From the NCBI GenBank assembly GCA_035328405.1, contig DAOLIT010000112.1:1-15076 (forward strand): DNA of 15,076 nucleotides, written 5' to 3'. Shown here piece after piece: positions 6,742-11,728 of this stretch (positions are counted from its first letter, which is position 1; every line of letters begins with the position of its first letter). Source of the DNA: Pseudomonadota bacterium. GTDB lineage: Bacteria; Myxococcota_A; Polyangia; Palsa-1104; JAEUJZ01. The translations under genes were made by a program, and so were the position numbers. The notes under the pieces were generated by a model. That model was not told the origin of the DNA and did no database searches. It saw only the letters and a program-made list of their open reading frames with translations.

Positions 6742-6810
6742 AGGGGTGTGGTATAGGGTGCGATAGGGGTGCGATAGGGGTGTGGTAAGGGGTGCGATAG
6801 GGGGCGCGAT
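6742..6810 (+). repeat. Six imperfect tandem copies of an 11-12-nt G-tract unit (AGGGGTGCGAT / AGGGGTGTGGT). There are six GGG(G) runs spaced ~11 nt apart.
   Basis: Direct reading of 6742-6810: aggggtgtggt atagggtgcgat aggggtgcgat aggggtgtggta aggggtgcgat agggggcgcgat. It is located 70-140 bp upstream of the MVP start. Confidence 0.85.
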
Positions 6811-6838
6811 GATGGAAGAACAGGGATGTATCGGTAGG

Positions 6839-6870
6839 AGCGTTAGAGCGTTAGAGCGTTAGAGCGTTTT
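6839..6870 (+). repeat. GAGCGTTA x3 plus GAGCGTTT: an octamer tandem repeat spanning the stop codon of the upstream lipoprotein gene
   Basis: Direct reading: gagcgtta gagcgtta gagcgtta gagcgttt (6839-6870). The minus-strand TAA stop of the 6859-8694 CDS is the revcomp of the 'tta' at 6859-6861, inside copy 3. Confidence 0.9.
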
Positions 6871-8694
6871 CATGAGGACCGTGCCGCCTGTTCCGACGGC
6901 ATGGAGGGTTCCGCCCTTGAGGTAGAGCTGGAACAAATCGTTGCGGGTGAAGGTGGGAAAAGGCTTCCAGGTGCCATCGCGGTTCTGAAGCACAGACCCC
7001 TGTGCGCCCGCGACCCACACCGCAGAAGCCGATGTGCCGACGACACTCCACAAAGAAATGGTGACGCCCGAGGATTCGGCGACCCATGCGCCGGCTTTGC
7101 GACGCAGCACGGTGCCTTGTTCACCGACGGCAAAGGCATTGTCGGTATCCGCAGCCCAAACACCGAGCAAGTTCGTGTTTTTGGGGGTTGTTTCCGCTTT
7201 CCATTGGCCTGCACTTCGGCGAACGATGCTGCCTGACGTGCCGACGGCATAGACGTTGTTGGCATCGACAACCCACAGTCCGAACAGGTCAGCGGTGGTG
7301 CCGCTGGTTTCGGGGGTCCAGGTGGTTCCGTCCCAGCGCGCGATGCAACCGGCCTGGCCGACCATGTAGATGTTGTTGGCTGCGGTTCCCATGATGCCTC
7401 GCGGAGCGGGAACAGGGGTCGAAGTGGTAGTCCAAGCGGTGCCGTTGTAGCGCAACACTGCGCCGGTCGGTCCAACGGCCCACAGGTCGGTGGGTGAGGC
7501 CCCCCAAATGGCCCACAAGGGGAACTTCATGCCGGATGAAACGGCCTGCCAAGTGGTACCTGTTGCGCGGTAGGTTCCGCCTTTGTCTCCGACGACCCAA
7601 AGGTCCTGACCAGCGGAAAATATGCCGTTGAGGGTTTCTTGATTGCCGGTGCGGTTTGCGAACGTGATTCCGTCGAAGGAAAAGGTGGTTCCGTAGTCTC
7701 CGACGGCCCAAAAATCGGTCGGGGTGGTGGTCAGGGCGCTCAGCCGCGCGTCGGTTTGGGTGGCTTGGAGTTTCCATGTGCCGGATTCGAGTCGATGTGT
7801 GGAGCCAAGAGATGATGTGGTGAGAACGACGCCATTTTTCTCGGCCACAGCGATCAGATCTCGGGTGGTACCTGGGTTGGAGAGACTCCAAGTGCCGTTT
7901 GTGTTCCTCAGAAACGTCCCGCGATGGCCGACGGCATACACGTCACCGGTCGGTGTTGCGTGTACGCCGCGCAAGGTCTCTTGGGTGCCGGTGGGGTGGA
8001 GCGAAAAGGAGGTGCCGTCGTAATGCAGGATGGTTCCTGTGTCCCCGACAAACCACAGGTCTTTGGAAGAACGACCAGACACGGCGTACAGGGGTGCCTC
8101 GGTGGAAGACGAGATTTTTTGGCAGCCGTCATCTGTGAGGTGCAACACGGTTCCCTGATCGCCCGCAATCCAAGCGTCAGATGAGGAAAACGCGACGACA
8201 CCGAATAGGGTTGCGGTGGTGGGGCAGAAGGCACGCGACCACCGGCTTTGCGAAATGCGCAGTACCGTGCCGTTTGCACCGACGGCGATGGCATCGGTTG
8301 GCGATAACGCGGCCACGCCATGCAAATCGTCGGTAATGCCGGTGCGAAAGGATGAAAAACCTTGGGAAGACAGTCTCCAGAGTGCACCTAGTTCTCCGAC
8401 GGCAAAACCGCTTTGCGAAGACAAGACGGACACCCCGAGGAGGGTTTGGCCAGAGGGCTTTGGATTGTTCCAACAGAAATCGCTCTCGGCGCAGGGCAAA
8501 AAGGAACCCTCGGTGTTGGTGGGAGGTTCGGGCGGTTTGGGTTCGCAGATTTCGGTTTCCAGGTTGCAGTGTTCGGTGGGTCCGCAGGCGGAAGGGGTTT
8601 GTACGCAATTTTCAGCAACGCCGTGTTTGAACCCAGACCACAGGCCGTCACAACCCGCGACCACCAAAAACCCGAGCAGACTCCTTTTCAGCAT
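6859..8694 (-). CDS. Secreted lipoprotein. It has a Cys-rich N-terminal region, then ~14 beta-propeller blades of the Ycf48/BNR-like type (WxVG..GT.L....G..W repeats), so probably two 7-bladed propellers.
   Basis: From Met 8694 the protein reads 'MLKRSLLGFLVVAGC', a signal peptide with an LVAGC lipobox. The ORF-track start at 8766 adds 24 non-signal residues and is rejected; GGAGA lies upstream of 8694. There are 8 Cys in the next ~60 aa. Repeats follow, such as 'DLWFVGDTGTILHYDGTSFS', 'DLWAVGPTGAVLRYNGTAWT', 'NVYAVGTSGSIVRRSAGQWK', 'AVGEQGTVLRRKAGAWV'. Confidence 0.7.
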   Translation of the reverse strand: MLKRSLLGFLVVAGCDGLWSGFKHGVAENCVQTPSACGPTEHCNLETEICEPKPPEPPTNTEGSFLPCAESDFCWNNPKPSGQTLLGVSVLSSQSGFAVGELGALWRLSSQGFSSFRTGITDDLHGVAALSPTDAIAVGANGTVLRISQSRWSRAFCPTTATLFGVVAFSSSDAWIAGDQGTVLHLTDDGCQKISSSTEAPLYAVSGRSSKDLWFVGDTGTILHYDGTSFSLHPTGTQETLRGVHATPTGDVYAVGHRGTFLRNTNGTWSLSNPGTTRDLIAVAEKNGVVLTTSSLGSTHRLESGTWKLQATQTDARLSALTTTPTDFWAVGDYGTTFSFDGITFANRTGNQETLNGIFSAGQDLWVVGDKGGTYRATGTTWQAVSSGMKFPLWAIWGASPTDLWAVGPTGAVLRYNGTAWTTTSTPVPAPRGIMGTAANNIYMVGQAGCIARWDGTTWTPETSGTTADLFGLWVVDANNVYAVGTSGSIVRRSAGQWKAETTPKNTNLLGVWAADTDNAFAVGEQGTVLRRKAGAWVAESSGVTISLWSVVGTSASAVWVAGAQGSVLQNRDGTWKPFPTFTRNDLFQLYLKGGTLHAVGTGGTVLMKTL

Positions 8695-10708: not shown

Positions 10709-11728
10709 TTAGGAAACCTTGCGTCGGGCACCGGGCACATCCAGCAGCACATCCGCCAGCGCATCGGCCAGCGGAAAGTGAGGTTCGTAATGTTGCAGCC
10801 AAAAGCACTCGCCGACGGGATTCGCTTCCAGAAAGACGTATCGACCGCTCGGTTCGACAATCATGTCGATCGCGCTGTATTGCACGCCCATCACCTGCAT
10901 GTAGGCGCGCAGTTTTTCTTCGATCTCGGCGGGCAACGTGTGTAGCTGCCACGCATTCACCAACGCCAGGCCGCGCTCGCGCCAATCGGTTTCTGCACCT
11001 TCCATCGCTTGCGAATCCACGGCTGCGGTGAAGAACCGCTGGCCGACCACCGTGATGCGCAGCTCCAGTTTTTTGGGGATGTGCTCTTGAAACACCATCG
11101 GGCAAAAACGCAACTGGTCGAGTTTTTCCAAAAGTTCGGGCCGAAACTTCGTCGTGAACACCACCTGTTCCCGGCCCTGTTCGTCATAGATCGCAAACGA
11201 CGCAAGCATCTTGACGACCGCGCCGTTCGAGCAACTTCCCAAAAACGAACGCGCCTCTTCGGGATGGTTGGTCATGATCGTCCGAGGCGTCACCAGGCCG
11301 ACCTTTCGGGCGACGGCTTGTTGATACGGTTTGTTTTCGTTGGTTCGGACCCGTGCGGGTGGGTCCATCACAAAACACGGCGCGGCTTGCAGCACGCCCC
11401 GCGACAGCGCAATCGTTTCATCCAGACTGGCGCGCAGGAATTGCCGGTCCATGCTTTTGGGCAACTTCGCGCCCCACTTCGCGCGTCGATAAAAAATCGC
11501 ATCGTGCGCACCGATCGTGTGTGAAGCGCCTTCCAGCCAAAACCGCAATTGCTCGCCGTGTTCGTCTTGAAAAAACGTGACCTGGTTCTCGACCGGAAAT
11601 TCGTCCGTATTCCATCGCAGCATGCGCCCGCCGCGCGCGTCGATCGCTTTGTCCAGCTCGGACAAAAGGCCCGTGACATCTTCTGTGTGCGTCACGACCA
11701 AGACTTGCTTCAGATCCTGTGTGCCCAT
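10709..11728 (-). CDS. Graspetide (microviridin/marinostatin-class RiPP) macrocyclase: ATP-grasp ligase of the MdnB/MdnC (MvdC/MvdD) family
   Basis: From Met 11728: 'MGTQDLKQVLVVTHTEDVTG...FYRRAKWGAKLPKSMDRQFLRASLDE...QFCPMVFQEHIPKKLELRITVVGQRFFTAAVDSQAMEGAETDWR...AIDMIVEPSGRYVFLEANPVGECFWL'. This matches MdnC-type blocks such as 'WYRRMRYGLKLPDGMDSQFREASL', 'ELRITIVGEQIFTAAINSQ..DWR' and 'AIDMIVTPDERYIFLEINPVGEFFWL'. The ORF-track start at 11800 is a 24-codon upstream extension. Confidence 0.85.
   Translation of the reverse strand: MGTQDLKQVLVVTHTEDVTGLLSELDKAIDARGGRMLRWNTDEFPVENQVTFFQDEHGEQLRFWLEGASHTIGAHDAIFYRRAKWGAKLPKSMDRQFLRASLDETIALSRGVLQAAPCFVMDPPARVRTNENKPYQQAVARKVGLVTPRTIMTNHPEEARSFLGSCSNGAVVKMLASFAIYDEQGREQVVFTTKFRPELLEKLDQLRFCPMVFQEHIPKKLELRITVVGQRFFTAAVDSQAMEGAETDWRERGLALVNAWQLHTLPAEIEEKLRAYMQVMGVQYSAIDMIVEPSGRYVFLEANPVGECFWLQHYEPHFPLADALADVLLDVPGARRKVS

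Follow-up and report, generated by a model that had tools for sequence, protein, structure and literature searches.

The major vault protein (MVP) has no known role in bacteria (bioRxiv 10.1101/872010), and the locus analyzed here raises the question of whether, and through which of its properties, a tandem repeat located upstream of a bacterial MVP gene influences that gene. The window, i.e., the whole analyzed stretch of 15,076 nt, is a metagenomic contig (Logan SRR26992860). The first-pass annotation had read the repeat as a candidate G-quadruplex (G4) or, alternatively, as an array of binding sites for a transcription factor; in our analysis neither reading is refuted and neither is favoured. 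Our own answer, which stays short of probable and is offered tentatively from the analysis of composition and folding, is that the array is a slippage-born, C-rich spacer that may act as a Rho loading (rut) site or insulator. Among the functional readings this is the most economical one, and it is of a known kind.

Nearly all genes of the window are localized on the minus strand. In the direction of transcription, their order is as follows: a graspetide-type cluster (a 501-aa protein, a 65-aa peptide, an MvdD-like ATP-grasp enzyme, and an ABC transporter), closed by the gene of a beta-propeller protein, then the MVP gene, and FliO, FliP, and FliQ (Table 1). The propeller gene is co-directional with the MVP gene and ends with a TAA stop codon at 6861-6859. 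The minus strand carries the MVP gene as well as its upstream neighbour, so for either of them the G-rich plus strand serves as the template, and the earlier assignment of the G-runs to the non-template strand has to be reversed. The propeller protein has no homologue above 33% identity, which makes it impossible to compare whether the array and the propeller gene travel together. In this Polyangia lineage the MVP gene stands immediately upstream of fliO, fliP, and fliQ (2243-3557); since EF-hand or NADH-dehydrogenase genes are found there in relatives, this adjacency is not conserved. The GC skew of the plus strand, strongly positive as far as about 9 kb, turns negative past about 10 kb, with the genes still on the minus strand.

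The start codon of the MVP gene was also corrected. The ATG at 6637 (MNER...) is used in all homologues and is preceded by a GGGGGG Shine-Dalgarno sequence; the first in-frame ATG, at 6670, is spurious and lies inside a conserved -10 hexamer. A position of the array 70-140 bp upstream of the MVP start, as previously given, holds only for the ATG at 6670, and the distance from the real start is 90-171 bp. Within 6400-7100, TTGACC-N18-GATGAT is the sole promoter-like match. In the alignment of 11 lineages, the block containing the -10 hexamer is invariant and the -35 hexamer is conserved, with the neighbouring columns averaging 44% identity. Given a presumed transcription start near 6659, the array occupies about -68 to -149 and is thus upstream of the promoter, 31 bp separating its end from the -35 hexamer. 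The predicted 5'UTR hairpin pairs CCCACCC, a part of the conserved block just past the -10 hexamer, with the Shine-Dalgarno G-run (6642-6647); with z = 1.0, this fold is no better than that of shuffled sequences and is without statistical support. Such a predicted hairpin could serve translational control of MVP.

Table 1. Repeats, genes, and predicted control elements around the MVP gene of the window.
Feature	Position	Strand	Evidence
Tandem array, seven imperfect units	6727-6808	minus	Sequence reading, TRF, shuffle control, contig comparison
Second array, GAGCGTTA x3.9 (sense TAACGCTC)	6838-6868	minus	TRF; strain comparison
Pyrimidine-rich arrays after the MVP stop codon, sense CCCCTTTCCT, CCCCTTATCT, and TTCCTCTCCTTTTC types	3605-3709	minus	TRF; composition
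Major vault protein homologue, 975 aa	3710-6637	minus	Pfam MVP_shoulder and Vault_3; 100% identical 975-aa protein on record
BNR/Ycf48-like beta-propeller, 611 aa, last gene of the graspetide-type cluster	6859-8694	minus	Pfam match, gene calls
-35 hexamer TTGACC of the predicted MVP promoter	6690-6695	minus	Consensus scan; conserved in the 11-lineage alignment
-10 hexamer GATGAT, within the invariant block CG.GATGATCC	6666-6671	minus	Consensus scan; columns invariant in the alignment
Predicted MVP 5'UTR hairpin, CCCACCCGG-AAUUUCUCA-GGGGGG	6642-6665	minus	Present in MFE and centroid folds

On the plus strand the array is built of units of the ATAGGGGTGCG type, which corresponds to the CGCACCCCTAT type in the sense orientation of the two flanking genes. 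Its seven units, in plus-strand order ATAGGAGGCGCGTT, TAGGGGTGTGGT, ATAGGGTGCG, ATAGGGGTGCG, ATAGGGGTGTGGT, AAGGGGTGCG, and ATAGGGGGCGCG, are 14, 12, 10, 11, 13, 10, and 12 nt long, respectively, and because the degenerate opening unit ATAGGAGGCGCGTT starts at 6727, the array is slightly longer than first noted. The units are imperfect (approximately 84% matches), and an exact 14-mer, GGGTGCGATAGGGG, is present three times. Above the level of the single unit there is a higher-order one of 34-36 nt, repeated in approximately 2.4 copies. TRF reported both levels: the 11-mer repeat was detected at 6756-6803 with a score of 73, and the 34-mer one at 6725-6808 with a score of 115, the highest in the window. 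When the window was shuffled 100 times with its dinucleotides preserved, TRF scores did not exceed 69, and the mean number of TRF rows was 3.5, compared with 24 in the real sequence; the score of 115 against 69 indicates that the repeat is genuine and well outside what chance would produce. The six G-runs start at 6743 (GGGG), 6756 (GGG), 6766, 6777, 6789 (GGGG), and 6800 (GGGGG), i.e., at steps of 13, 10, 11, 12, and 11 nt (mean 11.4 nt), which bears out the periodicity of about 11 nt ascribed to them before. The loops between them measure 9, 7, 7, 8, and 7 nt, so that four of the five fall within the 7-8 nt originally stated and the first one exceeds it. Within the array, only chance small ORFs of 26-31 aa were found on the plus strand, and the region 6500-7000 gave no Rfam match on either strand at E-values up to 1.

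Read as RNA of the flanking genes, the same DNA has a quite particular composition. The sense strand of the array contains 44 C and 7 G residues in 82 nt; it begins 51 nt past the TAA of the propeller gene and lies outside any ORF of that strand. The entire spacer RNA between this stop codon and the -35 hexamer (163 nt) contains 76 C, 15 G, and 49 YC dimers, and little structure is predicted for it (MFE of -5.8 kcal/mol, centroid structure nearly empty). When the minus-strand RNA was analyzed in 78-nt windows, the C/G ratio had a median of 1.18 and a 99th percentile of 5.8, and the two top regions were the flanks of the MVP gene, i.e., 6672-6879 (8.4) and 3555-3771 (40). The latter contains the arrays located after the MVP stop codon, which form the most C-rich and G-poor tract of the window (78-nt C/G up to 40) and differ by one 10-nt unit between strains. 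The skew reaches +0.50 at the propeller/MVP boundary and +0.74 at the MVP/FliO boundary, and the values for junctions inside the upstream operon are 0.0 (501-aa protein/peptide), -0.03 (peptide/ATP-grasp), and -0.08 (ABC transporter/propeller). It should be stressed that coding regions are also richer in C than in G on the sense strand (skew of the MVP gene, +0.18), so a part of this bias is background. No intrinsic terminator was found after the propeller gene or after the MVP gene, and no FliO promoter behind the downstream array passed the consensus scan.

These properties correspond to what is described for rut sites, which are characterized by YC dimers approximately 10 nt apart, a bubble of C over G, and the lack of secondary structure, and whose predicted positions peak about 50 nt beyond transcript 3' ends (PMC13613805). 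The RhoTermPredict tool looks for a pause site behind a 78-nt window in which C/G is above 1 and C residues recur every 11-13 nt (PMC6407284), and a ratio of at least 3 was reached in just 37 of 4494 validated E. coli predictions (PMC6407284). In cryo-EM structures, each Rho subunit accounts for five bound nucleotides together with linkers of 4-5 nt (PMC12360218). In the array, C exceeds G over the 60-80 nt that are expected of a rut site, its C-tracts follow each other at 13, 10, 11, 12, and 11 nt (i.e., within the usual distance of approximately 10-13 nt between C/YC motifs), a chain of seven C residues at steps of 11-13 nt can be drawn through it, and for the spacer as a whole little RNA structure is predicted.

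The within-species comparison was based on seven contigs from seven samples, which share an identical MVP protein, differ by approximately 0.6-1% at the DNA level, and represent three haplotypes. The array is identical in all seven, without any length variation. Over the 15 kb, every indel among the three haplotypes falls in a tandem repeat. The nearest example is the 8-mer array at 6838-6868, which has four copies in the window and two in the other two haplotypes (a 16-nt indel); one of the two-copy haplotypes also carries a SNP there. This second array overlaps the stop codon of the propeller gene, and since its first TAA is the stop codon, the propeller protein is unaffected by the copy number. 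Repeats inside genes vary as well: in contig L003 the in-frame (TCTTTG)11 repeat (773-838) of an approximately 875-aa gene, annotated there as Pkinase, is 24 nt shorter, and the in-frame 9-mer repeat in fliP (2874-2907) is 18 nt longer. As a separate observation, the haplotype of L003, L005, and L006 is devoid of approximately 514 bp (about 11132-11645 of the window, 3413-3926 of L001) comprising most of the MvdD-like ATP-grasp gene, which indicates that the graspetide-type cluster is polymorphic within the species.

Outside this species the array disappears. None of the relatives with 83-87% MVP identity (L008-L010, L014-L016, L018, L028, L030, L031, and L152-L155) has it, and these relatives keep the core promoter together with a C-rich, G-poor tract, mostly without a G4 motif. 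Most of them have another upstream gene, coding for approximately 555 aa and ending with ...NFRCAGGG*, which is followed by the C-rich tract, a CCGTCTC-N2-6-GAGACGG hairpin, and the conserved promoter. This hairpin, whose loop is variable and which is clearer than the predicted 5'UTR hairpin of the window, lies approximately 25 nt upstream of the -35 hexamer of MVP (L152, about 3425-3445; also L154, L155, L008, L009, L014, and L016); in the window it is missing, and only CGTCTCC remains of it. In the close relatives, the region 90-214 nt upstream of the MVP ATG ranks at the 98.6-100th percentile of the C/G ratio of the locus without any similarity to the array, which means that the composition is conserved where the sequence and the G4 motifs are not. 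On the sequence comparison, the array is a derived feature of one species, localized at a gene-order breakpoint, and the G-tract repeat is not a conserved control element of the MVP gene. Two further differences were noted: four-tract motifs of C-runs occur at 0.67 per kb in this species and at 0-0.3 per kb in relatives, and contig L010 has upstream of its MVP gene (1-860) approximately 1 kb of non-coding DNA with two direct repeats of about 470 bp and many GGAAAACC-GCAG-GGTTTTCC hairpins, in which there was no convincing ORF and no significant Rfam match.

Based on the above, the following course of events can be proposed. Replication slippage most likely acted twice, first making three copies of an approximately 11-mer, which diverged, and later doubling the 34-36-nt block so formed. 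The array fills the spacer between the propeller stop codon and the MVP core promoter. The functional feature is probably the composition of the array rather than the G-runs themselves. Its RNA, 82 nt that are C-rich, G-poor, and predicted to be unstructured, with CCCC tracts every 11 nt or so, would have the anatomy of a rut site, and read-through transcripts of the propeller gene, which we assume to exist, would expose it 51 nt past the stop codon. Rho would then load on this RNA and terminate transcription within or just beyond the MVP promoter region, where the predicted 5'UTR hairpin, approximately 60 nt downstream of the array, is a possible candidate for a pause hairpin, leaving MVP to be driven by its own promoter alone. 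The pyrimidine-rich array located after the MVP stop codon may do likewise for MVP transcripts. Three elements of this scheme are inferred: that the array is transcribed, that the organism possesses Rho, and that termination takes place. A stronger version, in which a rut site arose de novo from tandem duplication and, together with the array after the MVP stop codon, insulates the MVP gene transcriptionally, is rather doubtful; in that version the seven CCCC tracts, spaced by approximately 11 nt over 82 nt, would make an almost ideal periodic platform for Rho, with roughly one tract per Rho subunit.

Three other specific functions of the array have to be weighed, all of them less likely. A G4 on the plus (template) strand, or an i-motif on the C-strand, might modulate the MVP promoter or block the polymerases of the upstream gene, which we regard as very unlikely. 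The six G-runs speak for it, and so does the G4Hunter scoring that had been proposed as a check and was performed here, with a mean of 1.41 over 6753-6816 (64 nt) and a peak 25-nt window of 1.84 in the MVP upstream region of the same-species contig L002; moreover, the isolated strand folded into a four-tetrad G4 in the G-quadruplex model of ViennaRNA (with RNA parameters, -22.9 versus -8.7 kcal/mol without the G4), so that both score and predicted fold speak for a G4 propensity. With loops of 7-9 nt, however, there is no set of four successive runs in which each loop is 7 nt or shorter, hence the canonical G3+N1-7 rule fails and a match is obtained only at N1-9, while the same strand of the window offers six canonical (N1-7) and 12 relaxed (N1-12) candidates, several of them much stronger (e.g., 1606-1636, at -38.2 kcal/mol). 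Furthermore, a four-tract motif upstream of MVP occurs in only three of the 11 close lineages, whereas the C over G bias is conserved also in the other eight; the G-rich strand is never present in the RNA of either flanking gene, and a G4 would have to compete with a duplex of 60% GC. The earlier statement that a G4 could form is thus partly supported: the array has a G4 potential that is plausible in silico, but this potential is weak, does not stand out within the window, and is not conserved. An operator array for a factor binding direct repeats (an OmpR/PhoB-type winged-helix protein arranged head-to-tail on units of about 11 bp), from which the factor would activate or repress the downstream MVP promoter, is likewise unlikely. 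The seven direct repeats with the conserved core TAGGGGTG(C/T)G, their mean spacing of 11.4 bp, their position upstream of a plausible promoter, and the lack of variation among the seven contigs speak for such an operator, but the actual spacing (13, 10, 11, 12, and 11 nt, in units of 10-14 nt) is ill-suited to cooperative head-to-tail binding, as only two adjacent pairs of cores are exactly 11 nt apart and a constant register of about 11 bp is not kept. At 10.5 bp per turn, the six G-runs accumulate a shift in helical phase of 154 degrees, which leaves the claim that they share one helical face approximately correct at best. The array also ends 31 bp short of the -35 hexamer and extends as far as about -149, and there is no regulator gene adjacent to it. 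The unit is not enriched elsewhere in the window (nine matches with at most two mismatches, four of them in the array, against 3.1 expected); it was absent from the additional 6 kb or so of L002 and L003 and from the other fetched loci, i.e., from the other upstream regions within 21 kb of this genome, and from the orthologous promoters of the 11 lineages, in which the core is invariant. Within these 21 kb, the suggested search for the unit upstream of other genes therefore gave no sign of a regulon, and of the likeness to arrays bound by a repeated-site factor just the mean period of about 11 nt was retained, given the irregular register and the lack of other copies in the 21 kb and at orthologous promoters. 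A metagenome-wide search with the pattern AGGGGTG-N3-6-AGGGGTG-N3-6-AGGGG proved too generic, with at least 120 matches, those listed being unrelated tandem repeats. The FruA-type site, GGGYR-N4-6-YGGG, was also considered and rejected, as a purine precedes each G-run of the array and the motif does not fit. Finally, the CCCCU motifs of the array might pair with the MVP Shine-Dalgarno sequence (AGGGGGGA) in read-through RNA and silence the translation of foreign transcripts, a kind of effect that recalls the CT-rich insulation reported for sigma-54 promoters (bioRxiv 10.1101/086108). Direct reading of the sequence shows that the units are complementary to the Shine-Dalgarno G-run, but in the fold of the 249-nt read-through RNA, both MFE and centroid, this G-run pairs with the local CCCACCC of the 5'UTR and the array is unpaired, and more than 80 nt separate the array from the Shine-Dalgarno sequence; this fold gives no support to such insulation, which is extremely improbable.

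The remaining alternative is that the array has no function at all, being a neutral slippage product in the non-essential spacer of a repeat-prone genome, where it would serve as spacing only; this is possible, although somewhat unlikely, and has to be taken seriously as a competitor of the rut reading. The array occurs in this species alone and relatives with 83-87% MVP identity differ at this place, the window is rich in tandem repeats (24 TRF rows versus 3.5), some of them inside genes, and the strain indels all fall within such repeats, as expected of slippage. The spacer must also be young, as the order of the genes upstream of MVP is a derived one in this species. Against neutrality speak the strand-specific C/G ratio of up to 8.4, well above the 99th percentile of the window (5.8), the recurrence of this bias at the corresponding position of relatives whose sequence there is dissimilar, and a second array of the same polarity after the MVP stop codon. 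The copy number of the array is, moreover, constant in seven contigs while neighbouring arrays vary, an argument that weighs little because these contigs represent three haplotypes only. The rut reading, in turn, has its own difficulties. A C over G tract, although a weaker one (2.0-2.1), is also found in L026, L028, and L030, where the gene upstream of MVP is oriented divergently and cannot be terminated by it; the hairpin that stands between tract and promoter in relatives is missing in the window; and a functionless repeat accounts equally well for the non-conservation of the array.

The significance of these results is modest, and specialists in transcription termination or in G4 biology will find no surprise in them. 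What was gained directly is a corrected gene model, in which the MVP start is moved, the strand is fixed, and the promoter of a bacterial MVP gene is placed. If the rut reading holds, the locus would be a neat natural case of tandem duplication building a terminator where the gene order was recently broken, and the MVP gene of this clade may be insulated on both sides. Should the de novo origin also be true, the locus would illustrate that slippage following a gene rearrangement can create and tune Rho-dependent terminators, and the array would offer a natural, repeat-built rut site for mechanistic work.

Among known systems, the array can be compared with rut sites, e.g., lambda tR1 and E. 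coli trp t', with which it shares a length of about 80 nt, a C-rich, G-poor, and unstructured RNA, regular C/YC motifs at about 10-13 nt, and, as predicted here, a position soon after a stop codon in untranslated RNA and a downstream hairpin. Natural rut sites are degenerate and not tandem repeats, whereas the array is an overt repeat of seven units with a C/G ratio of about 6-8. The operators of the OmpR/PhoB family, such as pho boxes or the 11-nt direct repeat units of Streptomyces PhoP, resemble it in having direct repeats with a period of about 11 bp and a conserved core of 7-10 nt upstream of a promoter, but the array has an irregular register (10-14 nt), stands at a long distance from the -35 hexamer, and is not found at orthologous promoters. 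Bacterial promoter-proximal G4s are exemplified by the pilE G4 of Neisseria and by candidates in promoters of Deinococcus and Mycobacterium. The array shares with them at least four runs of G3-5 in an intergenic position near a promoter, and differs in its long loops (7-9 nt), its location upstream of the presumed start of transcription and on the template strand, and a motif that is neither conserved nor distinctive within the window. With intergenic repeats of the VNTR or contingency type it has in common a slippage-like look, species-specificity, and neighbours that change their copy number between strains, but it is imperfect (approximately 84% matches) and of one length in the seven contigs.
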